Part shown: positions 249 through 9,526 of the stretch, one piece after another | Numbering within the stretch: the stretch's first letter is position 1 | Layout of the letters: every line of letters begins with the position of its first letter | Notes under the pieces: generated by a model | The model's input: the letters and a program-made list of their open reading frames with translations, nothing else | What the model was told of the DNA's origin: nothing | Databases searched by the model: none | Made by a program: the position numbers and the translations under genes | NCBI GenBank assembly: GCA_028713575.1 | Contig: JAQTOB010000013.1 | Coordinates: 1-13,048, forward strand | Reading direction: 5' to 3' | Length of the DNA stretch: 13,048 bases | Source: Patescibacteria group bacterium | GTDB taxonomy: Bacteria > Patescibacteriota > Patescibacteriia > UBA2591 > UBA6264

Positions 249-1391
249 ATGCGTGCGAATCATTTTTACAAATTGATTATCGCCGTGATGATCTGCGAGG
301 TGGCGGGCCTTGTTGGTTCGGTTTTTACCGGGCCGGCCATTGACGGTTGGTATGCGGGTCTAATAAAGCCATCGTTTAGCCCGCCAAGCTGGATTTTCGC
401 GCCGGTTTGGACAATTTTATTCGCCCTAATGGGGATTTCATTTTTTCTGATATGGAAAAGTGATATTTTTATCAATCCTAAAGAAAGAAGAAGAGGAATA
501 ATCATATTTTTTATTCAGTTAGTTTTGAATATTTTTTGGTCAATTCTTTTTTTCGGTTTACGCTCTCCTCTTGGGGCTTTGGTGGAAATATTTTTTCTTT
601 GGTTAGCCATTCTGGCTACTGTGATCGTTTTCAGAAAAATCAAGCCAATCGGTCATTTGGCGGCTTGGTTTTTAGTGCCATACCTTTTTTGGGTTAGTTT
701 TGCCGCTTATCTTAATTATTCAATTTGGCGATTGAATGTCGCGCCGGGCAGAGAAACAATGGTCTATACGGAAGAGAAGTCGTCCGGTTTTAGCAATGAA
801 CGGGTAGAGAAAGCGATTACTGATTATCTTTTGACCCAAAATGATTTTAGCTGGAAAACGCAAAACAATAGCCACAATTTTTGCGCCATTGAAAATCTGA
901 TGCCGGAAAAAGAATTATTTCCTTTGTATACTTGGGCGTATTGCGGAGAATATATTATTCAAAATGACGAATTAAAAATATTAAGCGGTTCATCTGGTCC
1001 GACGGAGATAGATTATCCGAACGAACTTTCTTTTTATGATTTAGGCAAATTTTCCCACAGGAAACCTGGTGATGGTGCGCATTACGCTATGGACATTGAG
1101 AAGATATTTCCCGAAGAGATATGGCAAAAAATTTTTAATTTTAACCGAAAAAATATTATTAAAAAAATAGAAGACATCGCTTTAATTAATATTTCCGGCT
1201 GGGAATCAATAAAAAAAGCCGTTGATGGTTGTGAAGTAAAATCCGTTTGGCAGCATCACGACAGAACAGTTAAAGCAGAGTTGAGAAACGGAGGAGAGTT
1301 GAGCGGAGTTGAACCGATAATTGATGAAATAATGAAATTAGCAGTTGCGGCCGAACCACGATGCGGTAAAATTTTAATGGGAACGGAATAA
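249..1391 (+). CDS. tspO: TspO/MBR tryptophan-rich sensory protein (aa 1-163) fused to an uncharacterised soluble domain of about 215 aa
   Basis: The N-terminal 163 aa form five hydrophobic, Trp/Phe-rich segments with TspO-like strings: GWYAGLIKPSFSPPSWIFAPVWTILF, NIFWSILFF and YLFWVSFAAYLNYSIWRLN. The last of these is where free-standing TspO proteins normally end. The frame then continues without a stop for 217 more codons. The ATG at 249 directly abuts the upstream TAG. Confidence 0.85.
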   Translation: MRANHFYKLIIAVMICEVAGLVGSVFTGPAIDGWYAGLIKPSFSPPSWIFAPVWTILFALMGISFFLIWKSDIFINPKERRRGIIIFFIQLVLNIFWSILFFGLRSPLGALVEIFFLWLAILATVIVFRKIKPIGHLAAWFLVPYLFWVSFAAYLNYSIWRLNVAPGRETMVYTEEKSSGFSNERVEKAITDYLLTQNDFSWKTQNNSHNFCAIENLMPEKELFPLYTWAYCGEYIIQNDELKILSGSSGPTEIDYPNELSFYDLGKFSHRKPGDGAHYAMDIEKIFPEEIWQKIFNFNRKNIIKKIEDIALINISGWESIKKAVDGCEVKSVWQHHDRTVKAELRNGGELSGVEPIIDEIMKLAVAAEPRCGKILMGTE

Positions 1392-1421
1392 TATATTATT
1401 TTTTTTAAAATTTTGTTTTAT

Positions 1422-1430
1422 TTATCCACA
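1422..1430 (+). promoter_or_regulatory. Perfect DnaA-box consensus 9-mer TTATCCACA, 8 nt upstream of a TTGACA -35 element
   Basis: Exact match to TTATCCACA, read directly in the intergenic region 1392-1517. Confidence 0.5.
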
Positions 1431-1438
1431 GGGGACAT

Positions 1439-1467
1439 TTGACATAAAATTATTATGGGTATATGCT
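1439..1467 (+). promoter_or_regulatory. Candidate sigma70-type promoter for the DUF5320-led island
   Basis: TTGACA at 1439-1444, a 17-nt spacer, then TATGCT at 1462-1467 (4/6 match to TATAAT). An alternative -10 is TATATG at 1460-1465 with a 15-nt spacer. The -35 is perfect but the -10 is only moderate. Confidence 0.45.
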
Positions 1468-1517
1468 TATAACATACGGTCGGAAAAAATTTAATCAATT
1501 TATTTAATAAAAAGCAT

Positions 1518-1787
1518 ATGCCAAGATTTAACGGAACTGGACCTATGGGTTTTGGCCCGGGTACGGGCTGGGGCAAAGGTCCTTGTGGTGGTGGCCAATT
1601 TTTTGGTCGCCGAAATGGCAGACAAGGTCAAGGTTTGGGACAAAGAAGATTTTGGGGACACTACCCCGCATCGGCTCTCGACGAAAAAGAAGAAATAAAA
1701 ATGCTTTCTGACGAAGAAAACATTTTAAAAGAAGAACTTGAAGCCATAAAATCTCGTTTAACCCAGCTGAAATCTGCTAAAAATTAA
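1518..1787 (+). CDS. DUF5320-family protein (Gly/Arg-rich N-terminus, C-terminal coiled coil)
   Basis: MPRFNGTGPMGFGPGTGWGKGPCGGG followed by an FFGRRNGRQGQGLGQRRFWG tract and a heptad-like EEIKMLSDEENILKEELEAIKSRLTQLK tail. This matches the DUF5320 pattern (MPRGDGTGPMG...) that I recall next to NifX-like/DUF134 genes in anaerobes. Confidence 0.8.
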   Translation: MPRFNGTGPMGFGPGTGWGKGPCGGGQFFGRRNGRQGQGLGQRRFWGHYPASALDEKEEIKMLSDEENILKEELEAIKSRLTQLKSAKN

Positions 1788-1882
1788 AAAAATAGAAAAA
1801 ATTTTTAAGTAAAGTTAAAGGTCAAGATATTAAAAATTATTTAATATGAAATGTTTTTAATTTGCGTTAATCAATAAAAGAT

Positions 1883-2167
1883 ATGTTATCACAAATACCA
1901 ATCAATTTGGAGAAAATTGACAAGAAAAATTTGGACGCGGAAATATTAAGAGTCGGCATTATTGCCGAGTTAGACGCGGTTAATTTATATGAACAAATGG
2001 CGGCTATAGCGCAGGACGAGAACATAAAAAAAATTCTTTTAGATATTGCTAAAGAGGAAAAGACGCATGTGGGAGAGTTTCAGGCTTTATTATTAAATCG
2101 TGACCAAGAACAGGTTAAGGAAATGGTCGCCGGAAAAGAAGAAGTTAAAGAAGAAGTGGGGGAATAA
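1883..2167 (+). CDS. EncFtn-like mini-ferritin (ferritin-like/rubrerythrin superfamily, half-ferritin fold)
   Basis: IAELDAVNLYEQ and EEKTHVGEF parallel the EELEAVDWYDQ and EEKEH motifs of encapsulated ferritin. The spacing Glu29 -30- Glu59 -3- His62 equals the E32/E62/H65 spacing of the Rhodospirillum rubrum EncFtn as I recall it. The protein is 94 aa. Confidence 0.75.
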   Translation: MLSQIPINLEKIDKKNLDAEILRVGIIAELDAVNLYEQMAAIAQDENIKKILLDIAKEEKTHVGEFQALLLNRDQEQVKEMVAGKEEVKEEVGE

Positions 2168-2180
2168 TAAAACAAAATTT

Positions 2181-2519
2181 ATGAAAATCGCAATAAGTTC
2201 AATGAGTGAAAATATTGAAGGCAATGTTTCTGATGTTTTTGGCAGATGTCCATATTTTGTTATTACTGAAATAAAAGACGGTAAAATAGAAAAAACAGAA
2301 ATCGTCAAAAATGAAAGTACTGACCAGAATAGCGGAGCCGGAGTTTTAGCCGCCCAATTAATGGCGGAAAAAAATATTGAAGTCGTAATTGCCAATAATG
2401 TCGGACCAAGAGCCCTGGATGTTTTAAATCAATTTAACATTGAAGTTTATGTTGGCAAAGGAACAGTGAAAAATGTTTTACAGGATTTTATGGACAAAAA
2501 ACTTAAGAAAATGAATTAA
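2181..2519 (+). CDS. NifB/NifX-type (dinitrogenase FeMo-cofactor biosynthesis domain family) small protein, paralogue 1
   Basis: MKIAISS...VSDVFGRCPYFVITE...GAGVLAAQLMAEKNIEVVIANNVGPRALDVLNQFNIEVY is the typical single-domain Nitro_FeMo-Co fold pattern. I start at ATG 2181 rather than the ORF-track 2100, because that extension overlaps the ferritin-like gene and MKIA... is the family-typical N-terminus. Confidence 0.85.
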   Translation: MKIAISSMSENIEGNVSDVFGRCPYFVITEIKDGKIEKTEIVKNESTDQNSGAGVLAAQLMAEKNIEVVIANNVGPRALDVLNQFNIEVYVGKGTVKNVLQDFMDKKLKKMN

Positions 2520-2549
2520 TATATTGGAAAATATAATTTTATTTATTTA

Positions 2550-2576
2550 GAAAATGAAAATAAATTTTCATTTTTC
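2550..2576 (+). repeat. AT-rich inverted repeat or hairpin between the two NifX-like genes
   Basis: AAAATGAAAAT (2551-2561) pairs perfectly with ATTTTCATTTT (2564-2574). G2550 can wobble-pair with T2575. A T-rich run follows. Confidence 0.5.
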
Positions 2577-2591
2577 TTAATCATTCCAATT

Positions 2592-2951
2592 ATGAAATTA
2601 GTTATCCCCACAAATGGCAAAAATGGTTTAAATGACAAAATAGCCGAGCATTTTGGTCGTTGTGCGACTTATACTTTTCTTAATGAAAAAGGAGAAGTGA
2701 TTGAAATTATAGATAATACCAGCGAGCATATGGGTGGAATTGGCCTGCCACCTGAATTAATGAAAAAATACGGAGCAGATATTTTATTATGTCATGATAT
2801 CGGACCGAGGGCCATTAATCTATGTAAAGACTTAGGGATTGATGTTTATGTCTGCCAAGCCGATAGGGTAAAAGAAATTTTTGAATTATGGCAAAGTAAT
2901 AAACTTAAGAGGGCGGGCGTAGAAAACGCCTGTAAACAGCATAAAATATGA
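2592..2951 (+). CDS. NifB/NifX-type cofactor-binding domain protein, paralogue 2
   Basis: MKLVIPTNG...IAEHFGRCATYTF...GADILLCHDIGPRAINLCKDLGIDVY has the same fold pattern and the same FGRC motif as paralogue 1. Its TGA stop overlaps the next ATG (ATGA at 2948-2951). Confidence 0.85.
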   Translation: MKLVIPTNGKNGLNDKIAEHFGRCATYTFLNEKGEVIEIIDNTSEHMGGIGLPPELMKKYGADILLCHDIGPRAINLCKDLGIDVYVCQADRVKEIFELWQSNKLKRAGVENACKQHKI

Positions 2952-3820
2952 AAATTGCGGTCACCGGAGGAAAGGGCGGTACGGGGAAATCAATGGTTGC
3001 CACTTCCTTAGCGGTTGAATTTGCTAAAAATAAAAAAACCGTTTTATTGGATGTTGACGTTGAATGTCCGAATGACCACCTTTTACTTTCCGTTAAAAAA
3101 AAGGAATTTGTCAAGATTTATCAACCCATACCAAAATGGAACTTTAATAAATGCAATAAATGCGGCAAATGCGCTTCTGTTTGCAAACAAAATGCGATTG
3201 TTTTTGTTAAGGGTAAATATCCGGCTTTTGTAAAAGATATTTGTATTGGTTGCAAGGCCTGTATTGTCGCTTGTCCTTATGGGGCTATTTCTGAAACCAA
3301 GAAAGAAATTGGGACGATTTATACGGGCAAAAATTATAACGTGGATTTGATTTCCGGCGAACTGAAATTAGGTGAATTGGCCTCAGGCGAAGTGGTGGCT
3401 GAAGTTAGAAAAAATTCGGAAAGTATCGTTAAAAAATTAAAATCAGAAATTATTTTAATAGATTCTGCGGCCGGCATTGGTTGTCCGGTAATCGCGTCTT
3501 TAGTTGGTACCGATTATATCATAGCCGTTACCGAACCTACGCCATCGGCTTTGCACGACTTGAAAAGAGTTTTGTATTTGGCCAATCATTTTCAAATAAA
3601 ACATGGTATAGTTATTAATAAATACGATTTGGCGAAAGAATTTTATCGGGAAATAGAAAAATTTGCCCAAAAAAGCAATACCCCTGTTATTGGAAAAATT
3701 CCTTATAAAAAAGATTTTGTTGATGCAACCATAAAAATGAAACCAGTGGTTGAAATTAACCCAAATTATCAAAAGATATTTAAGCAGATAATTAATCAAA
3801 TAAATTTATCAATAAAATGA
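2948..3820 (+). CDS. MinD/ParA/CooC-superfamily P-loop ATPase with an inserted 2x[4Fe-4S] ferredoxin domain
   Basis: Deviant Walker A: KIAVTGGKGGTGKS. The DVDVECPNDH motif is present. Two cluster motifs, CNKCGKCASVC and CIGCKACIVACP, are inserted after the P-loop. A Walker B-like ILIDSAAGIGCP follows. Confidence 0.9.
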   Translation: MKIAVTGGKGGTGKSMVATSLAVEFAKNKKTVLLDVDVECPNDHLLLSVKKKEFVKIYQPIPKWNFNKCNKCGKCASVCKQNAIVFVKGKYPAFVKDICIGCKACIVACPYGAISETKKEIGTIYTGKNYNVDLISGELKLGELASGEVVAEVRKNSESIVKKLKSEIILIDSAAGIGCPVIASLVGTDYIIAVTEPTPSALHDLKRVLYLANHFQIKHGIVINKYDLAKEFYREIEKFAQKSNTPVIGKIPYKKDFVDATIKMKPVVEINPNYQKIFKQIINQINLSIK

Positions 3821-4866
3821 AAGAAAAGGTAGCTTTAATCTCAATTTTAGCCAATGTATTTTTGGCCATCGGCAAGTTAATTGTCGGATTTATATCCGGT
3901 TCTAGCGCCATTTTTGCCGAAGGATTACATTCGGGCACAGATATATTATCATCGGTTGTAAGTTTTATCGGTATTAAGATTGCCAAAAAGCCGGCGGACA
4001 AAAAACATCCTTACGGCCATTATAAATTTGAAGTTTTGGCTGGATTGGTTATAACCATAATTTTGTTTTTAACCGGCGGGTTTATTATATTGGAATCAGT
4101 TAAGGGGTTTATAAGTCCTTCTCCGGTCAGGATTGGTTATTTGTCTCTCGGCGTGATGCTGATGGCGGCCATAATAAATGAAATTATGGCGAGGTTGAAA
4201 ATTCATTATGGGAAAAAAGAAAATTCAATTTCCTTATTATCCGACGGTATTCACTCCCGGGTTGATGTTTATGGTTCATTGGCGATTTTTATCGGTTTGT
4301 TTTTGACTAAGTATTGGGTCTATGTTGACTCTCTTTTGACTCTTTTGGTCGGTTTATATATCATCAAAGAATCCTTTTCCATAGGAAAAGAAGCAGCTGA
4401 TTCCTTACTTGATGTTTCCGCCGACGAGGAAACAGAAGAAAAAATAAAATCAATTGTTAAAAAAGAAAATATTGAAATAAATTCTTTAAAAACACAGAAA
4501 AAAGGTTCAGCCGTCACTGTCAATTTGGAAATAAATTTGTCACGCAATTTAAAAGTGGAAGAGGCGACTAAGATTTCTCATCACTTAAGAGAAAAATTAA
4601 TTCAGGGTATAAAATCTCTTGAATATGTTTCAATTCAGATTGCCAGCCATGAAATTGAAATCGGATTTTATAAATCCGGTTTTAGTCGCGGTTTTAGCTG
4701 GCAAAAAAGAGGGAGATTTACACATGAAATAAAAGAAGCATCTGGTAAAGGACCCGAAGGGCATTGCGTTTGCAAAAAATGCGGTTATAAAACATTACAT
4801 CAAAGAGGAATTCCTTGTTCAAATCTTCAGTGTCCGAATTGCAATATAAATTTACAAAGAGAATAA
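3817..4866 (+). CDS. Cation diffusion facilitator (CDF) divalent-metal efflux transporter with a 71-aa C-terminal Cys-rich extension
   Basis: Six hydrophobic segments. TM2 carries HSGTD and TM5 carries HSRVD (HxxxD/HxxxD transport site). The CDF signature HPYGHYKFE is present, as is a cytoplasmic alpha/beta C-terminal domain ending near aa 278. The tail follows: GFSRGFSWQKRGRF...GKGPEGHCVCKKCGYKTLHQRGIPCSNLQCPNCN. An ATGA overlap at 3817-3820 links it to the ATPase gene. Confidence 0.9.
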   Translation: MKEKVALISILANVFLAIGKLIVGFISGSSAIFAEGLHSGTDILSSVVSFIGIKIAKKPADKKHPYGHYKFEVLAGLVITIILFLTGGFIILESVKGFISPSPVRIGYLSLGVMLMAAIINEIMARLKIHYGKKENSISLLSDGIHSRVDVYGSLAIFIGLFLTKYWVYVDSLLTLLVGLYIIKESFSIGKEAADSLLDVSADEETEEKIKSIVKKENIEINSLKTQKKGSAVTVNLEINLSRNLKVEEATKISHHLREKLIQGIKSLEYVSIQIASHEIEIGFYKSGFSRGFSWQKRGRFTHEIKEASGKGPEGHCVCKKCGYKTLHQRGIPCSNLQCPNCNINLQRE

Positions 4867-4868
4867 AT

Positions 4869-5144
4869 ATGTCCAGGCCAAGACTTTGTCGGAAAATAAG
4901 ATTTAGTCCGAATGTGACTTATTTTAAGCCTCAAGGCGTGCCTTTGAGATTGTTGGATATAGTTGAATTAACAACAGAAGAGTTAGAGGCCTTGAGATTG
5001 AAAAACGAAAAAAATTTAGAGCAGATAGAAGCCGCTAAAATGATGAAAACCTCAAGAAGCACTTTCCAAAGAATTTTGACTTTGGCCTATAAAAAAGTAA
5101 CGACGGCCTTAATTAAAGGAAAGGCGATTAAAATAATTAAATAG
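4869..5144 (+). CDS. DUF134-family predicted DNA-binding protein (sigma-70 region-4-like HTH)
   Basis: MSRPRLCRKIRFSPNVTYFKPQGVP...LTTEELEALRLKNEKNLEQIEAAKMMKTSRSTFQRILTLAYKKVTTALIKGKAIKI matches the DUF134 pattern (MPRP..R.....P....FKP.G.....L..EE.EA.RL.D..Q..AA..M.SR.TF). I start at ATG 4869, 2 nt after the CDF stop, rather than the ORF-track 4815, which overlaps the CDF tail. Confidence 0.85.
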   Translation: MSRPRLCRKIRFSPNVTYFKPQGVPLRLLDIVELTTEELEALRLKNEKNLEQIEAAKMMKTSRSTFQRILTLAYKKVTTALIKGKAIKIIK

Positions 5145-5151
5145 AAAAATT

Positions 5152-5421
5152 ATGAAAGTATTGAAATTTGGCGCCGAATGGTGTTCAGGGTGTCTAGTGA
5201 TGAGGCCCAGATGGGCGGAAATTGAGAAAGAGTTACCCTGGCTAAAGACAGAAATGTATGATTACGATAAAAATAAAGAGATGGTGGAAAAACATAAAAT
5301 TAACCAAAATCTTCCCACCTTTATTTTTCTTGATAAAAACGGAAACGAAATTACGCGTTTGGGCGGCGAACCGTCAAAAAAAGAATTACTTGCGCTTATA
5401 GAAGAACATAAGGATAAATAA
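5152..5421 (+). CDS. Small cytoplasmic thioredoxin-family protein (WCSGC active site)
   Basis: KFGAEWCSGCLVMRP...LPTFIFLDKNGNE shows a thioredoxin fold, with the CxxC at the expected N-terminal position and a cis-Pro-like LPT motif. No signal peptide is visible. Confidence 0.8.
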   Translation: MKVLKFGAEWCSGCLVMRPRWAEIEKELPWLKTEMYDYDKNKEMVEKHKINQNLPTFIFLDKNGNEITRLGGEPSKKELLALIEEHKDK

Positions 5422-5443
5422 TAAATTGATTAAGATTAAATTT

Positions 5444-6655
5444 ATGTTTAAAAGGTTTTTAATTTTGTTTTTTCTTTTTTGTTTTTTAATTGTTCCCAAA
5501 CAGGATGTTTTGGCGCAAAAATCCGTTAATGTTTATTTTTTTTGGGGAGAAGGATGTCCGCATTGCGCCAAAGAAAAAGTATTTTTAGAAAAACTTGAAC
5601 AAAAATATTCGGAAGTGAAAATTTATGATTATGACGCCTGGAAAACTTCGGAGAACAGGCAATTATTGGTTGATTTTGGTGAAAAATTAAATGTCAATAT
5701 CTCGGGCGTACCTTTTACCGTTATTGGAGAAAAGTATTTTATCGGGTGGTATAACGAGGAAATTACAGGCGCAGCCATTGAAGAAGCAATACAATGCGTT
5801 TTGGAAACAGGATGCCGGGATGTCGGCGCGGAAATTTTGTTTTTAGAAAATCAAAATAATGTTGAAGAAGAGAATTGCGGCTGGGAGGAAGGAAAATCGG
5901 CGATTCCGCAAAAAATTAAAGTTCCTTTTTTAGGAGAGATTGAAACAAAAAATTTTTCCTTACCATTATTAACGATTGTTTTAGGCACTTTGGATGGGTT
6001 CAACCCCTGCGCGATGTGGACATTATTGTTTTTAATTTCTTTACTTTTGGGAATGAAAGACAGAAAAAGGATGTGGATTTTAGGAATAGCTTTTATTGTT
6101 GCTTCAGCTTCGGTTTATTTTCTTTTTATGGCTGCTTGGCTTAATTTGATTTTATTTTTAGGTTTTATTATTTGGGTAAGGATTGTCGTCGGTTTAATTG
6201 CTCTTTCTGGCGGCGGTTATTCTTTAAAAGGATATTTTACTGACCCAAAGGCGGGCTGTAAGGTGACAGGCACGGAGAAAAGGCAAAAAATTTTTGAAAA
6301 GCTTAAAAAAATCACGCAGCAAAAAAGTTTTTATCTTGCTTTAGGAGGAATTATTCTTCTGGCTTTTGCCGTCAATTTAGTGGAATTGATTTGCTCTGCC
6401 GGCTTGCCCGCGGTCTATGCCCAAGTTTTGGCCTTAAGTCATTTGGTCAAATGGCAATATTATCTTTATATTTTGCTCTATATATTTATTTTTATGCTGG
6501 ATGATTTGTTTGTTTTTTTTGTGGCCATGACTACTTTACAAATGACCGGTATTACCACCAAGTATAGCCGAATATCAAAATTAATCGGCGGATTGTTAAT
6601 GATTATCATTGGTTTATTATTGTTGTTTAAGCCGGAATGGCTGATGTTCGGATAA
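5444..6655 (+). CDS. Exported thioredoxin/glutaredoxin-like domain (CPHC) fused to a CcdA/DsbD-like polytopic membrane domain
   Basis: Signal-peptide-like N-terminus MFKRFLILFFLFCFLIVPKQDVLAQ. Next comes VYFFWGEGCPHCAKEKVFLEKL...GVPFTVIG (thioredoxin fold with a CPHC motif). A region of about six TM helices follows, with single cysteines in GFNPCAMW and LICSAGLP, reminiscent of the two half-cystine TM motifs of CcdA/DsbD. The start could instead be TTG 5426. Confidence 0.7.
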   Translation: MFKRFLILFFLFCFLIVPKQDVLAQKSVNVYFFWGEGCPHCAKEKVFLEKLEQKYSEVKIYDYDAWKTSENRQLLVDFGEKLNVNISGVPFTVIGEKYFIGWYNEEITGAAIEEAIQCVLETGCRDVGAEILFLENQNNVEEENCGWEEGKSAIPQKIKVPFLGEIETKNFSLPLLTIVLGTLDGFNPCAMWTLLFLISLLLGMKDRKRMWILGIAFIVASASVYFLFMAAWLNLILFLGFIIWVRIVVGLIALSGGGYSLKGYFTDPKAGCKVTGTEKRQKIFEKLKKITQQKSFYLALGGIILLAFAVNLVELICSAGLPAVYAQVLALSHLVKWQYYLYILLYIFIFMLDDLFVFFVAMTTLQMTGITTKYSRISKLIGGLLMIIIGLLLLFKPEWLMFG

Positions 6656-6667
6656 ATTATTTTAAAG

Positions 6668-6700
6668 ATAAAGATTTGTTTTTAAAAAACAAATCTTTAT
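6668..6700 (+). terminator. AT-rich hairpin downstream of the island (candidate intrinsic terminator)
   Basis: ATAAAGATTTGTTTTT (6668-6683) pairs with AAAAACAAATCTTTAT (6685-6700), a 16-nt perfect inverted repeat starting 13 nt after the stop at 6655. It has only two G:C pairs and no clean U-tract, so confidence is modest. Confidence 0.4.
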
Positions 6701-6705
6701 ATATC

Positions 6706-6714
6706 TGTGGATAA
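6706..6714 (-). promoter_or_regulatory. Perfect DnaA-box consensus 9-mer (TGTGGATAA, the reverse complement of TTATCCACA), 5 nt upstream of a TTGACT -35 element
   Basis: Exact match read directly in the intergenic region 6656-6774. Confidence 0.5.
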
Positions 6715-6719
6715 CTTAT

Positions 6720-6748
6720 TTGACTTATTGTAAAGTATACTTTACAAT
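6720..6748 (+). promoter_or_regulatory. Strong sigma70-type promoter of the DUF2178/XRE/HEAT operon
   Basis: TTGACT (6720-6725), a 17-nt spacer, then TACAAT (6743-6748). It lies 27 nt upstream of ATG 6775. Confidence 0.7.
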
Positions 6749-6752
6749 AAGT
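6723..6752. promoter_or_regulatory. Perfect 30-bp palindrome (candidate operator) spanning the -35 to -10 region
   Basis: ACTTATTGTAAAGTA|TACTTTACAATAAGT is its own reverse complement (checked base by base). An extra direct copy of ACTTATT sits at 6714-6720. Confidence 0.7.
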
Positions 6753-6774
6753 AATATAAATATAACTTTTTTAT

Positions 6775-7182
6775 ATGAATTATCAACAATTTAAAAGGAT
6801 AAAAATATTAACCACTTCTTTTGTTTCCGCTACCGTGGCCGTAGCCGTTGTTTATAACAACATTATTTTGGCTTTAGCCGGAGTGATAATCGGCATGATT
6901 TTCCTTTTTTTTGTCAGAAAAAAAACAAAGATTATTTTAGTGGACGAAAGAGTTCAAAATATTGCTGGTCAAGCCGCTCGTTTGACTTATGTAATTTTGA
7001 CCATGACCATTGCTTTTCTCTCTTTGATTTTTCTTGGCAGCGGTCGGCGGATGAATGACATTAATTATGAAACACTGGGTGTTATTTTAAGTTACACCAC
7101 TTTATTCAGTATTGCCCTGTATTCGCTTTCATATAAATATATCAGTAAAAAATATGGAGAAACAGATGACGAACAAGATTAA
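6775..7182 (+). CDS. DUF2178-family small membrane protein
   Basis: Four hydrophobic segments with a VDERVQNIAGQAARLTY motif between TM2 and TM3. It has the characteristic position immediately upstream of, and overlapping, a short XRE-type HTH gene. Confidence 0.7.
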   Translation: MNYQQFKRIKILTTSFVSATVAVAVVYNNIILALAGVIIGMIFLFFVRKKTKIILVDERVQNIAGQAARLTYVILTMTIAFLSLIFLGSGRRMNDINYETLGVILSYTTLFSIALYSLSYKYISKKYGETDDEQD

Positions 7183-7360
7183 GGTTTATCGGGCTATGCG
7201 TAATATGACCCAAGAAGAATTGGCGAATAAAGTTGATGTTACCCGACAAACCATTATTGCTATTGAAAAAAACAAATATGTTCCGTCTCTGGGATTAGCT
7301 TTTAAAATTGCGAGAATTTTTGGCGAAACCATTGAAAACATTTTTCATTATGAAAAATAA
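7166..7360 (+). CDS. Short XRE/Cro-CI family helix-turn-helix transcriptional regulator (64 aa)
   Basis: MTNKIKVYRAMRNMTQEELANKVDVTRQTIIAIEKNKYVPSLGLAFKIARIFGETIENIF is a canonical HTH_3 pattern. GGAGA at 7156-7160 is the only clear Shine-Dalgarno in the window. The gene overlaps the DUF2178 gene by 17 nt. I start at 7166 rather than the ORF-track 7112. Confidence 0.85.
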   Translation: MTNKIKVYRAMRNMTQEELANKVDVTRQTIIAIEKNKYVPSLGLAFKIARIFGETIENIFHYEK

Positions 7361-7903: not shown

Positions 7904-9526
7904 ATGATTAAAAAAGATTTTTCAATTTTAATAGGAGGTAAAGCCGGAGAAGGGTCCAGGAAGGCGGGCTTGGTAATTGCCAAGTTGTTCACTGAGCTTG
8001 GTTATAAAATTTTTATTTATGACGATTACCAGTCTTTAATCAGGGGAGGACATAATTTTTCTCATATCAGGGCGGCAGATAAAAAAATTCTTTCTCATAG
8101 AGAAAAACTTGATTTTTTGTTGGGCTTAAATAAAGATGTTATTGAAAAACATAAAAATAAGTTAGATAAAAACGGAATCATTATTCAAAATAGCGAGGCA
8201 AAAAAAGCAGTAGAAGAGGTCGGAGGCAAATCAATGATGGAAAATACGGCTCTTATTGCCATTTTCGCTAAAAATATTGGAATAGAATGGAAACTTTTAG
8301 AAAAAGTTTTAAAAGAAGAATTTAAAAAATTTCAGAAACTAAATTTAAGAGTAGCCCAAAGGGCATTTGACAAAGCAGAGATATTAATTAAAGTTAAAAA
8401 ATTGAACAAAAAAGGATTTCCCCTTATGACGGGCAATGAAGCCCTTGCCTTGGGGGCTGTAAAAGCCGGGCTTGATCTTTATCTTGCTTATCCCATGACC
8501 CCGGCCACAGGAATTTTGCACTATTTGGCGGAAAATAAAGACAGGTTTAAAGTAGTCGTTTCCCAATTAGAAAATGAAGTCGGGATTGTTAATGCCGCAG
8601 TAGGGGCGGTTTATGCCGGGAAGAGAACCATGATTGGGACATCCGGAGGAGGCTTTGCTTTAATGACAGAGGGATTTAGTTTGGCGGCCCAAAATGAAAG
8701 TCCTTTGGTTATAATAGAAAGTCAAAGAATGTCTCCGGGAAGCGGCGTTCCGACTTATCAGGCCCAAGGAGATTTATTATTTGTTTTAGGCGCAGGGCAC
8801 GGCGATATAATTAAGTTTGTTATTGCCCCCGGCGATGCCGAAGAATCTTGTTTTTGGGGAGGGAAAATATTAAATCTTTCTTGGAAATACCAAACGCCCT
8901 CAATTTTGCTGATAGACAAGGAGGTTTCCGAGAGTACTTTTAGTTTTGATGAAAATATTTTAAAAAAAATTAATCGCGAACAACCCTTTCTTTGGAATAA
9001 AAAGGGGAGATATTTGAGATATAAGAACACAAAAAATGGAATTTCTCCTTTGGCTTTTCCCGGAGACAAAAACGCAATTTTTAAATCAAACAGCTATGAA
9101 CATGATGAATTTGGCTTGACCATAGAAGACAAAGAGGGTGTAAAAAAGATGCAAGACAAAAGATTAAGAAAGTTCAAAGAAATGGAAAAAGAAGTAGATA
9201 AATTAGAATCAGTTAAGGTTTATGGGAACAAAAAGTCAAAGAAAGCCATTATTTGTTGGGGGTCAACAAAAGGTCCGGTTAAAGAAGTAGTTGAAAAATT
9301 GGGACTTAAAATGATTCAACCGATTATTTTACAGCCTTTTCCCGCGAAAAAAATAAAACAAGTTTTAAAAGGAGTAAAAAAAATTGTTTTAGCAGAAACC
9401 AGCGCCTTAGGGCAAATGGAAAAACTTTTAAATAGTCATGGGATAAAAGTAGATAAAAAGATTTTAAAATATGATGCCCGACCGTTTTTACCAGAAGAAA
9501 TAGAAAAAAAATTATCTAAATTTTAA
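7904..9526 (+). CDS. 2-oxoacid:ferredoxin (acceptor) oxidoreductase, fused gamma-alpha subunit
   Basis: The N-terminal ~170 aa are gamma-like (ILIGGKAGEGSRKAG...YQSLIRGGHNFSHIR). The rest is alpha-like (MTGNEALALGAVKAGLDLYLAYPMTPATGILHYL, ENEVGIVNAAVGAVYAGKRTMIGTSGGGFALMTEG). Confidence 0.9.
   Translation: MIKKDFSILIGGKAGEGSRKAGLVIAKLFTELGYKIFIYDDYQSLIRGGHNFSHIRAADKKILSHREKLDFLLGLNKDVIEKHKNKLDKNGIIIQNSEAKKAVEEVGGKSMMENTALIAIFAKNIGIEWKLLEKVLKEEFKKFQKLNLRVAQRAFDKAEILIKVKKLNKKGFPLMTGNEALALGAVKAGLDLYLAYPMTPATGILHYLAENKDRFKVVVSQLENEVGIVNAAVGAVYAGKRTMIGTSGGGFALMTEGFSLAAQNESPLVIIESQRMSPGSGVPTYQAQGDLLFVLGAGHGDIIKFVIAPGDAEESCFWGGKILNLSWKYQTPSILLIDKEVSESTFSFDENILKKINREQPFLWNKKGRYLRYKNTKNGISPLAFPGDKNAIFKSNSYEHDEFGLTIEDKEGVKKMQDKRLRKFKEMEKEVDKLESVKVYGNKKSKKAIICWGSTKGPVKEVVEKLGLKMIQPIILQPFPAKKIKQVLKGVKKIVLAETSALGQMEKLLNSHGIKVDKKILKYDARPFLPEEIEKKLSKF

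Follow-up and report, generated by a model that had tools for sequence, protein, structure and literature searches.

A Patescibacteria gene cluster with the sequence features of a streamlined ORP cluster and of the IssA store

Comparative sequence analysis indicates that the six-gene core of a cluster from a Patescibacteria (CPR) MAG, a tiny genome, is a streamlined form of the orange protein (ORP) cluster known from strict anaerobes and also shares features with the IssA iron-sulfur store. The cluster does not represent orphan biology: NifX-like genes beside a MinD-type ATPase that carries two 4Fe-4S motifs are what defines the ORP cluster. The best explanation, to which we assign a probability of about 50%, is that a co-transcribed ORP-type core, regulated by its DUF134 protein, handles metal sulfides or metal clusters and is coupled to a metal exporter. 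The homologies behind this reading were established by sequence comparison, and from them we infer the functional steps.

The window, i.e., the whole 13,048-nucleotide stretch analyzed, contains nine co-directional + strand genes at 1518-6655 according to its ORF and gene listing. The original prediction had counted ten over the same span, although its own product list likewise came to nine. Intergenic distances along the cluster are 95, 13, 72, -4, -4, 2, 7, and 4 (or 22) nt, in agreement with the earlier statement that gaps are 95 nt or less, and the ATGA overlaps (2948 and 3817) and 2-nt gap (4867-4868) that it described were seen on direct reading of the sequence. No terminator-like sites were found on the + strand within the cluster's intergenic gaps, and the proposal of one tight, probably co-transcribed unit was supported. 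When the motif-based family calls were subjected to HMM searches, eight of the nine passed Pfam thresholds.

A putative promoter/operator block (1439..1478, + strand) lies ahead of the cluster. The TTGACA promoter was present as described, with TTGACA at 1439-1444, a 17-nt spacer, TATGCT at 1462-1467, and a conserved stretch downstream. It is the best sigma-70-like + strand match in 1300-7000, although promoter-like matches as a class were not enriched there (27, versus 20.5 ± 5.3 in shuffles). The site is kept in seven Patescibacteria lineages, and the block could be aligned across four divergent ones. Its spacer contains an invariant TTATGGG, and TTGAC-N9-TTATGGG occurred exactly once per locus in 11 of 11 Patescibacteria loci, each time upstream of the cluster.

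Within the Patescibacteria, the conserved core comprises six genes encoding DUF5320, two NifX-like proteins, the ATPase, a CDF transporter, and DUF134, and their order is maintained in seven lineages whose flanking genes are unrelated. Outside the Patescibacteria, we sampled 40 ATPase-homologous loci from ~20 bacterial and archaeal phyla, together with 39 control loci harboring other P-loop ATPases. NifX-like genes adjoined the ATPase homologue in 38 of the 40 loci, DUF5320 adjoined it in 22 loci, DUF134 did so in 16, and 17 loci contained the Cys6His module described below; none of these four was detected in the 39 controls. Four kinds of gene fusion further tie the parts together, namely, NifX+DUF5320 (confirmed with Pfam), NifX+Cys6His, DUF134+Cys6His, and CDF+Cys6His. 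The neighborhood is conserved beyond its source genome. Patescibacteria genomes are gene-dense and co-directional, and three of the nine genes are not conserved partners, so unrelated small genes might have come together by chance in a compact genome. For the cluster overall, we consider the likelihood of this close to nil given the gene order kept amid unrelated flanks, the linkage across phyla versus its absence from controls, and the fusions. For the six-gene core, chance juxtaposition was refuted by these comparative data.

The first core gene encodes an 89-aa DUF5320 protein (1518..1787, + strand; Pfam PF17253, 7.5e-18, 66 bits versus a cut-off of 27). Its residues 1-52 are cationic and Gly/Arg/aromatic-rich (pI 12, 33% Gly, 7 cationic and 8 aromatic residues, one Cys), and residues 53-89 are acidic and coiled-coil-like. 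The family alignment revealed a conserved MPxGDGTGP...C motif and C-terminal heptads, and in other phyla DUF5320 is fused to NifX domains. Since the composition of the N-terminal half matches the chemistry of the IssA tail as described (PMC5524996), this half appears IssA-tail-like, and the whole protein resembles a free-standing cationic tail of the IssA type with a coiled coil attached, a parallel that is compositional. The Gly/Arg/aromatic half would act as such a tail in trans, and the coiled coil would multimerize the assembly.

The two NifX-like proteins scored 74 and 55 bits against Nitro_FeMo-Co (cut-off, 26.3). Protein A (112 aa; 2181..2519, + strand; Pfam 1.1e-20) is tail-less and of the MTH1175/IssA-clade type: its top PDB match was MTH1175 (1eo1, 6e-23), which has been assigned to the IssA clade (PMC5524996), and the orange protein 2wfb matched at 1e-7. 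The mechanical ORF of protein A begins at GTG 2100. Protein B (119 aa; 2592..2951, + strand; Pfam 9.5e-15) is of the PH0822/TM1816 type and matched 2yx6 (1.2e-11). The original prediction that these domains do not serve FeMo-cofactor was borne out, as the nitrogenase NifX model TIGR02663 gave 16.6 bits, short of its 112-bit cut-off, and the window's gene content includes no nifHDK, nifEN, or nifB. We propose that the NifX-like proteins could hold anionic metal-sulfide species noncovalently, much as IssA holds thioferrate (PMC5524996); the species bound by the orange protein, [S2MoS2CuS2MoS2]3-, was taken as a parallel.

The MinD-type P-loop ATPase (290 aa; 2948..3820, + strand; Pfam CbiA/ParA P-loop and two Fer4 motifs) resembles Orp3/Orp4. 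Its Walker A motif, GKGGTGKS (nt 2969-2992), is deviant, and the protein also has a conserved Cys179, an amphipathic C-terminal stretch by hydrophobic moment, and a 2x[4Fe-4S] ferredoxin domain as an insert (nt 3152-3274), in which the two CxxCxxCxxxC motifs noted earlier were located at C69-C79 and C99-C109. Key residues were invariant among 36 diverse homologues. The protein is 31 to 40% identical to ATPases of loci carrying bona fide MrpORP, with 36% measured for one such locus, and identity between Patescibacteria classes is 78 to 88%. In Desulfovibrio, the NifX-like Orp8 co-purifies with Orp3/Orp4, which in vitro accept Fe-S clusters delivered by MrpORP (PMC6345978). By analogy, an ATPase dimer might use ATP and its own Fe-S clusters to load, unload, or pass on bound clusters. 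The earlier claim that the stand-alone NifX-like proteins, the ferredoxin-containing MinD subgroup, DUF5320, and DUF134 all lack a demonstrated role was wrong for the first two, since the orange protein, which binds a Mo-Cu-S cluster (PDB 2WFB), and IssA, which stores thioferrate (PMC5524996), are stand-alone NifX-like proteins and the MinD subgroup is that of Orp3/Orp4 in the Desulfovibrio ORP complex (PMC6345978).

A MinD-like ATPase could alternatively serve cell division by positioning proteins at the membrane or the cell poles, a role suggested for the Desulfovibrio ORP complex. Altered cell morphology is the sole phenotype reported for the ORP complex (PMC8359166), inactivation of orpR leads to morphological defects, and ORP genes are annotated "cell division" (PMC8359166, PMC4641369). 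MrpORP shows polar localization, and Orp3/Orp4 carry at the C-terminus an amphipathic helix like that of MinD (PMC6345978); the window ATPase likewise ends in an amphipathic stretch. However, the constant partners (NifX, Cys6His, and the ferredoxin insert) all bind metals or clusters rather than being division proteins, no MinC/MinE/FtsZ-type gene was linked in any locus examined, and the phenotype may be indirect, so we regard a division role as distinctly improbable.

The CDF divalent-cation transporter body (3817..4752, + strand) matched Pfam Cation_efflux (4.6e-52, 177 bits) and ZT_dimer, as well as TIGR01297 (237 bits; cut-off, 82), and consists of a transmembrane domain, a cytoplasmic dimerization domain, and a Gly/Arg/aromatic linker; the complete gene, tail included, runs from 3817 to 4866. 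Its site A reads H38xxxD42 plus H146xxxD150, which we take to be the Zn-type rather than the Fe/Zn-type signature under the usual CDF classification, so the exported metal may be zinc rather than iron. The body was present in six of seven Patescibacteria lineages (three of four in the first scoring) and in 0 of the 40 other loci; among the loci compared, a membrane metal exporter is joined to an ORP-type cluster in Patescibacteria versions only.

The original prediction described this transporter as having a Cys6 tail. The six cysteines are indeed present, but the tail's nature as a separate, widespread module was missed, and its recognition as a Cys6His module by sequence comparison is new here. 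The module (4753..4863, + strand; C-x-C-x2-C-x5-H-x5-C-x4-C-x2-C), with its six Cys and one His invariant, was recovered at E = 1.7e-13 by an HMM built from 16 non-Patescibacteria copies alone. The family has at least 3,100 members, mostly free proteins of 45 to 79 aa without a Pfam family; elsewhere the module is either a free protein of 45 to 86 aa or fused to NifX or DUF134. AF2 modeled it with a mean pLDDT of 82.7, and matches to rubredoxin/zinc-ribbon-like folds were weak. In locus L011, a bona fide MrpORP (510 bits versus a cut-off of 450) has as neighbors a Cys6His protein of 68 aa and a pair of ATPase paralogues, and a deltaproteobacterial locus carries the same set. Judged by size, cysteine content, and gene position alone, the free Cys6His protein is probably Orp5/Dde_3197; in O. 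alaskensis G20 transcriptomes, Dde_3197-3199 move up and down with feoA and flavodoxin (PMC10533852). The module may be a portable metal- or cluster-binding adaptor or sensor that here would link the system's state to a membrane divalent-metal exporter.

The same genes might instead detoxify metals, with NifX-like proteins sequestering thiometalates or toxic metal sulfides (Mo/Cu/Zn/Cd), the CDF exporting, Cys6His sensing, and thioredoxins repairing thiols. The zinc-type site A, the resemblance of Cys6His to zinc-ribbon/rubredoxin knuckles, the Mo-Cu-S cluster of the orange protein as isolated (PMC6345978), and the response of G20 ORP genes to copper-surface exposure (PMC10533852) are consistent with this role. 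However, none of the 40 non-Patescibacteria versions has the CDF, which rules out export as the original function of the core; moreover, such high ATPase conservation in minimal genomes is unusual for detoxification systems, and the ATPase has two 4Fe-4S motifs and Fe-S proteins as partners. Detoxification is accordingly a minor possibility.

The core is closed in seven of seven Patescibacteria lineages by the DUF134 (UPF0251) helix-turn-helix protein (91 aa; 4869..5144, + strand; Pfam 1.9e-19, 70 bits versus a cut-off of 27), a candidate regulator with weak similarity to sigma-70 region 4. Its mechanical ORF begins at TTG 4815. In other loci, DUF134 forms fusions with zinc ribbons and with the Cys6His module. 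It would bind the conserved promoter/operator and regulate the operon; the predicted role in metal or metal-cluster handling under DUF134 control fits all of the comparative evidence.

The original prediction had united all the genes in one module; the conserved unit is the six-gene core, and the other three genes are lineage add-ons. The EncFtn-like/rubrerythrin-type mini-ferritin (94 aa; 1883..2167, + strand; Pfam EncFtn-like, 34.1 bits versus 27; NCBIfam EncB_fam, 64, below its cut-off of 90) is sporadic: the gene is missing from this position in most related loci, persists as a frameshifted remnant in locus L092, and lies 6 kb away next to a ZIP transporter in locus L007. A small cytoplasmic thioredoxin (CSGC, 89 aa; 5152..5421, + strand; Pfam Thioredoxin 1.3e-11, 44.9 bits versus 23.5) was found beside the cluster only in the window among the loci examined. 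The ninth protein (403 to 409 aa; 5426..6655, alternative start 5444, + strand) combines an exported or membrane-anchored CPHC thioredoxin fold, confirmed by Foldseek (probability 1.0) despite subthreshold Trx/Grx sequence matches, with a polytopic membrane domain. This domain matched no Pfam family or PDB chain, leaving its description as "CcdA-like" without HMM or fold support. The family is Patescibacteria-wide (7,291 homologues) and housekeeping-like; none of the other lineages sampled had its gene within the cluster, and in L007 it sits beside the ZIP and EncFtn genes, outside the cluster. All three add-ons, the EncFtn-like ferroxidase among them, are compatible with iron and thiol handling.

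NifX/NafY and CooC/Mrp-type proteins work as cluster assembly and insertion factors. With this precedent, the ATPase and NifX-like carriers could be a dedicated maturation factor that builds or inserts a complex cluster for one anaerobic metalloenzyme; [FeFe]-hydrogenase and 2-oxoacid:ferredoxin oxidoreductase are examples of targets. In Portnoybacteria, [FeFe]-hydrogenase genes come immediately after the cluster, and 2-oxoacid:ferredoxin oxidoreductase is encoded 1.2 kb downstream of the cluster in the window. Nevertheless, flanks vary by lineage and no single enzyme gene is a constant neighbor in the seven Patescibacteria contexts or among the other 40 loci, which makes a single dedicated target unlikely.

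Compared with known systems, the NifX-like proteins share a domain superfamily (Pfam PF02579) with NifX/NafY of nitrogenase FeMo-cofactor assembly but fall far below the equivalog cut-off and have no nif genes nearby. Like the tailed CDFs (FieF/YiiP, CzcD/ZitB, and MamB/MamM), the window CDF has Cation_efflux and ZT_dimer domains and HxxxD in TM2 and TM5, but it scored far under all cut-offs of specific NCBIfam equivalogs (best, MamB, 159 bits versus 350) and adds the C-terminal Cys6His module, otherwise an ORP-type cluster component. With IssA of Pyrococcus furiosus, a thioferrate storage protein (Vaccaro 2017), the cluster shares the IPR003731/NifX domain of MTH1175 type and a cationic region rich in Gly, Arg, and aromatic residues that has one cysteine, compared by description rather than with the PF2025 sequence. 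Here the tail-like region belongs to a protein of its own, DUF5320, in which a coiled coil comes after it, whereas other phyla also have NifX and DUF5320 in the same chain. The ORP cluster of Desulfovibrio vulgaris Hildenborough (Orp3, Orp4, Orp5, Orp8, and Orp9/MrpORP; Fievet 2011, Pardoux 2019) shares the adjacency of NifX-like genes and a 2x[4Fe-4S] MinD-type ATPase, a small cysteine-rich module, and confinement to anaerobes. The module is free there but on the CDF transporter here, DUF5320 and DUF134 are not among the ORP components in the literature found, and a conserved sigma-70-like promoter plus a DUF134 gene take the place of a sigma-54 activator like OrpR. Since the Patescibacteria cluster has one ATPase rather than the Orp3/Orp4 pair (two genes in 38 of the 40 other loci) and no MrpORP, which is missing from the window as a whole, its machine may differ from the Desulfovibrio complex.

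The cluster comprises nine + strand genes between positions 1518 and 6655, rather than the ten of the original prediction: DUF5320 (1518-1787), an EncFtn-like gene (1883-2167), NifX-like A (2181-2519) and B (2592-2951), a MinD-type ATPase with a ferredoxin insert (2948-3820), a CDF transporter (3817-4866), DUF134 (4869-5144), a thioredoxin (5152-5421), and a thioredoxin-fold/membrane protein (5426 or 5444-6655). The intergenic distances are, in order, 95, 13, 72, -4, -4, 2, 7, and 4 or 22 nt, and the two ATGA overlaps and the 2-nt gap described earlier were seen by direct reading of the sequence. The TTGACA promoter was likewise recovered as the top + strand promoter-like site (TTGACA at 1439, a 17-nt spacer, and TATGCT at 1467), and no terminator-like sites were found on the + strand in the gaps of the cluster. 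Another promoter-like site (6720-6748) lies upstream of the first gene after the cluster. Directly 3' of the cluster and served by this site of its own, a gene encoding a DUF2178 membrane protein overlaps that of a small XRE/HTH_3 regulator (7166-7360), the two spanning 6775-7360 (+). On the 5' side, a 380-aa TspO/MBR protein (249-1391, +) matches TspO only over residues 12-161 (Pfam, 7.5e-47); its C-terminal ~215 residues are soluble-looking and match no family.

An Rfam search of the leader and gaps gave no match at E ≤ 1 besides one chance snoRNA, and a riboswitch or other RNA element in these regions was therefore rejected; no tRNA genes were found in the window. The 72-nt gap between the NifX-A and NifX-B genes contains an AT-rich inverted repeat (2528-2574; arms 2528-2544 and 2558-2574, separated by 13 nt and with 82% complementarity). 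We discounted this and the other intergenic inverted repeats as signals, since they are AT-rich and indistinguishable from chance in AT-rich DNA.

The window ATPase is identical to a protein of the Patescibacteria MAG GCA_028711035.1, whose contig JAQTSZ010000003.1 (locus L001) is a sister of the window at 99.5% identity; the window bridges the 100-N scaffold gap of that contig (window 8623-9199 versus L001 8623-8722). The window's 2-oxoacid:ferredoxin oxidoreductase is a single fused gamma/alpha ORF of 540 aa (7904-9526) that appears as two fragments in the public annotation. Across Uhrbacteria, Falkowbacteria, Andersenbacteria, Portnoybacteria, and other lineages (homologues P0002-P0120), the ATPase is 78-88% identical, and its identity to anything outside Patescibacteria does not exceed 48% (clustered at 50%). 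The former level of identity is unusual in the Patescibacteria radiation and could reflect either strong constraint or recent horizontal spread; since it is maintained across classes in very small genomes, it suggests that the system matters to the organism.

We read seven distinct Patescibacteria contexts (the window, L002, L005, L007, L091, L092, and L093). DUF5320, two NifX-like genes, the ATPase, and DUF134 are common to all seven, and the CDF gene lies between the ATPase and DUF134 genes in six; the ATPase is present in one copy in the window and in every Patescibacteria locus. The exception, Andersenbacteria, is without the CDF, and DUF134 there is 167 aa long, bearing a zinc ribbon (CxxC...CxxC) as well as a Gly/Arg tail. 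The conserved unit is a six-gene core, and the functional unit originally proposed shrinks accordingly, with the EncFtn-like, thioredoxin, and ninth genes being lineage-specific additions. One rival reading assigns the cluster to the maturation of one specific enzyme; the flanks of the seven contexts are unrelated to one another. In Portnoybacteria (L002 10309-13019; also L003 and L004), DUF134 is immediately followed on the same strand by genes for an NADH-binding 51K-type subunit and an [FeFe]-hydrogenase large subunit.

Among the seven contexts, an EncFtn-like gene between the promoter and NifX-A occurs only in the window and, as a frameshifted and internally deleted remnant between the conserved promoter and NifX-A, in L092 (5088-5285), where DUF5320 is on the opposite strand (4615-4842). 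The window protein passes the Pfam EncFtn-like cut-off (34.1 versus 27) and falls below those of the encapsulated-ferritin models (NCBIfam EncB_fam, 64 versus 90; TIGR04535, 53 versus 125), and no encapsulin shell gene was found in the window; we therefore rejected its identification as an encapsulated ferritin (EncFtn/EncB cargo). In L007, the EncFtn-like gene is 6 kb from the core, beside a ZIP transporter gene and a homologue of the ninth gene. These three make up a small group of their own, 4-6 kb 3' of the core (L007 14118-16381; also L008), which suggests a second metal-homeostasis unit that is partly merged with the core in the window. The small thioredoxin gene is absent from all other loci examined. 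The ninth protein is one of a family spread across Patescibacteria, in which it has 7291 homologues at 55-75% identity. The other eight family assignments pass curated Pfam cut-offs; its own Trx/Grx sequence matches are sub-threshold, and the thioredoxin fold was confirmed on the predicted structure. Its 250-aa membrane domain matches no known family or structure and does not qualify as a CcdA/DsbD-type domain, so the label "CcdA-like" had to be dropped.

The core is not confined to Patescibacteria. When an alignment of 36 diverse ATPase homologues was used to scan one genome per species, it yielded 40 loci with a true ferredoxin-containing ATPase from ~20 phyla of bacteria and archaea, including Micrarchaeota, Bathyarchaeia, Thermoplasmatota, Dehalococcoidia, Desulfobacterota, Clostridia, Bacteroidales, Spirochaetes, Synergistaceae, and Aminicenantes. 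Thirty-nine loci with other P-loop ATPases from the same scan served as controls. ORFs were labelled with iterated profiles. Fusion proteins made those for DUF5320 and the "CDF" drift towards NifX and Gly/Arg-rich proteins, and this was corrected with a transmembrane-only CDF query, a tail-only HMM free of Patescibacteria sequences, and a Pfam check of 30 DUF5320 candidates. A NifX-like gene was present in 38 of the 40 loci, DUF5320 in 22 (26 ORFs; 30/30 candidates match PF17253), the Cys6His module (the C-terminal tail of the window CDF) in 17, DUF134 in 16, and an EncFtn-like gene in 1; each of these was found in 0/39 control loci, and a true CDF body in none of either set. Linkage of the core thus holds beyond this genome, in ~20 phyla versus none of the controls, and chance juxtaposition is excluded for the six genes.

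An NCBIfam search indicated the MrpORP model and, with it, the orange protein (ORP) complex of Desulfovibrio vulgaris. In that complex, Orp3 and Orp4 are MinD-like proteins with two [4Fe-4S] motifs each, Orp5 is homologous to a small [2Fe-2S] protein, Orp8 is the orange protein, which is NifX-like and has homologues that bind [S2MoS2CuS2MoS2]3- noncovalently, and Orp9 is MrpORP; the genes form two operons, orp5-orp4-orp3 and orp7-orp8-orp9, with a sigma-54 activator (PMC6345978, PMC8359166). Orp3, Orp4, and Orp8 copurify and take up Fe-S clusters from MrpORP in vitro (PMC6345978, PMC8359166). The physiological role of the complex is "still unclear," with cell division being one hypothesis (PMC6345978, PMC8359166), and cell division is accordingly a rival role for the window cluster. 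This literature on NifX-like and MinD proteins contradicts the original prediction that stand-alone NifX-like proteins and the ferredoxin-containing MinD subgroup have no demonstrated role, though their biological function is unsolved.

Several features tie the window to this complex. Its two NifX-like proteins are single-domain (PF02579, 1e-20 and 9.5e-15) and match the ORP structure 2wfb (NifX-A at 1.1e-7, NifX-B at 5.5e-4). The ATPase has a deviant Walker A motif and two CxxCxxCxxxC motifs, all invariant in the 36 homologues, and its gene overlaps that of NifX-B by 4 nt. Homologues of it form the ATPase pair of loci that contain MrpORP: in the Desulfobacteraceae locus L011, where a protein scoring 510 bits against the MrpORP equivalog cut-off of 450 adjoins a 68-aa Cys6His protein and two ATPase genes, the ATPase is 36% identical to that of the window (E = 9e-57). 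A deltaproteobacterial locus contains the same set. In a deltaproteobacterial ORP-type locus, a MoaA-type radical-SAM molybdenum-cofactor gene lies within 1.5 kb after the Cys6His gene (L089 6110-7087; L090 4842-5819), a neighbour worth noting because the orange protein has a Mo-Cu cluster. Many ~600-aa relatives consist of two ATPase-ferredoxin units in tandem (L026 7029-8897, L045 7125-8846, P0122-P0160), and such natural Orp3-Orp4-like fusions argue for an Orp3/Orp4-type pair working as a heterodimer. The nitrogenase NifX and CooC readings were rejected because the NCBIfam equivalog models score far below their cut-offs (TIGR02663, 16.6 bits versus 112, for NifX); as had been predicted, the window also contains no nif genes.

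feoA and flavodoxin are typical iron-status genes. In O. alaskensis G20, the ORP-operon genes Dde_3197-3199 change together with both (PMC10533852), a weak supporting observation for a metal-sulfide reading.

The transporter is a feature of the Patescibacteria version. Its body is that of a standard CDF protein (PF01545, 4.6e-52; PF16916, 2.3e-6; TIGR01297, 237 bits versus 82), with the Cation_efflux transmembrane domain, the cytoplasmic dimerisation domain, and the TM2/TM5 metal site of the family. Site A reads H38xxxD42/H146xxxD150, which we take to be a zinc-type signature by the common CDF classification, and this is the main reason against assuming iron as the exported metal. Metal detoxification is a further rival role for the cluster; the CDF occurs only in its Patescibacteria versions (0/40 other loci).

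The C-terminal 37 residues of the CDF, PEGHCVCKKCGYKTLHQRGIPCSNLQCPNCNINLQRE, carry the Cys6His motif C-x-C-x2-C-x5-H-x5-C-x4-C-x2-C, with six cysteines and one histidine invariant. The same motif ends free proteins of 45-86 aa that start with MPRGDGTGP, continue as Gly/Arg-rich sequence, and are encoded directly beside the ATPase pair. An HMM built from 16 non-Patescibacteria copies alone picked the CDF of the window out of 6593 ORFs at E = 1.7e-13. A search with a 45-aa alignment put the family at 3100 members or more, nearly all of them hypothetical proteins in the annotation that lack a Pfam family. Fusions of the module to NifX domains (L017, L019, and L036) and to DUF134 (L028 and L047) also occur. 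AlphaFold confidently models it as a small knuckle fold (mean pLDDT, 82.7), whose resemblance to rubredoxin and zinc-ribbon domains in a fold search was weak and nonsignificant. Judging by size, cysteine content, and gene position, the module is probably Orp5/Dde_3197. It is fused to the CDF in the window, and in ORP-type loci its free copies adjoin the paired ATPase genes. For Dde_3197, a similarity of 41% to a "dinitrogenase FeMo-cofactor biosynthesis protein" is reported (PMC10533852), which would fit a relative of the NifX-Cys6His fusions but proves nothing.

The other end of the core recalls IssA, the thioferrate store of P. furiosus, which consists of a NifX domain and a disordered, cationic, Gly/Arg/aromatic-rich tail with a single Cys; MTH1175, which is without the tail, falls in the same clade (PMC5524996). 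MTH1175 is the closest solved relative of NifX-A (6e-23 in a structure-database search), and both window NifX-like proteins are tail-less (112 and 119 aa). Residues 1-52 of DUF5320 have a pI of 12.0, with 17 Gly, 7 Arg/Lys, no acidic, 8 aromatic, and 5 Pro residues and 1 Cys, and its last 37 residues form an acidic heptad-like segment. In Dehalococcoidia and Aminicenantes, Pfam places Nitro_FeMo-Co and then DUF5320 in one polypeptide. Given this cationic composition and these single-chain fusions, DUF5320 can be read from sequence as one half of a split IssA-like protein, the half that provides the tail and oligomerisation, and we infer that it is functionally equivalent to the IssA tail.

An alignment of the upstream regions of four divergent Patescibacteria lineages showed conservation of the -35 element, an invariant TTATGGG within the spacer, the -10 element, and ~12 more bases. 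Each of 11 Patescibacteria loci contains exactly one TTGAC-N9-TTATGGG, in every case immediately 5' of the cluster; the remaining 82 loci contain one chance, intragenic copy. Since a conserved spacer is unusual in a plain promoter, an overlapping operator is suggested, for which DUF134 would be the obvious candidate binder.

Taken together, these data best support an ORP/IssA-type metal-sulfide handling machine. The general idea of metal or metallocluster handling was right; the predicted feature is real and conserved, and its gene count, extent, one family call, and claim to novelty needed revision. In such a machine, both NifX-like proteins would be scaffolds, DUF5320 would supply the cationic tail and coiled coil, the MinD-type protein would be the redox ATPase, the Cys6His module would be an adaptor or sensor, here linking the system to an exporter, and DUF134 would be the regulator. 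A more ambitious reading, to which we give about one chance in five, is that the Patescibacteria machine is physically wired via Cys6His to a membrane transporter, so that the six-gene unit works as a membrane-coupled store and release valve for metal sulfide. The NifX-like proteins would be its scaffolds, next to the detached cationic tail and the redox ATPase, and the occupancy of cluster or metal would gate the exporter. These minimal anaerobes could then use it as a main route for supplying Fe-S and buffering metals, and Cys6His would more generally be a portable cluster/metal sensor, able to plug into NifX as a scaffold, DUF134 as a transcription factor, or the CDF as a transporter.

Gene order across ~20 phyla and four kinds of gene fusion place DUF5320, DUF134, and the unnamed Cys6His family (at least 3100 proteins) in one system. 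Its Patescibacteria version, made up of two NifX proteins and a single ATPase, tail protein, regulator, and transporter, is minimal and small enough for reconstitution. Two of its features, the CDF fusion and the conserved promoter, offer direct experimental handles on the way metal-sulfur species are stored, moved, and sensed in strict anaerobes.

The ORP complex became known more than 10 years ago and its function is still unsettled, and IssA is, to our knowledge, the only known biological iron-sulfur store. The window differs from the ORP cluster in having one ATPase gene in place of the tandem paralogues Orp3 and Orp4 (38/40 non-Patescibacteria loci have two copies) and in lacking MrpORP, the fusion of an Mrp/NBP35 domain to a NifX-like domain, which is absent from the window and the 37.6-kb contig flank (NF041136 partial matches, 31-54 bits versus 450). 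The ORP cluster has a sigma-54 promoter and the activator OrpR, whereas the conserved promoter here is of the -35/-10 type, and no gene for an enhancer-binding protein was found in the window. Unlike in IssA, the cationic Gly/aromatic-rich tail is on a separate polypeptide, DUF5320. What the window shares with the ORP cluster is a single-domain NifX-like protein (IPR003731) homologous to the orange protein and, adjoining its gene, a MinD-like ATPase with two [4Fe-4S] ferredoxin motifs; the cluster is a new version of an already known but functionally unsolved system.
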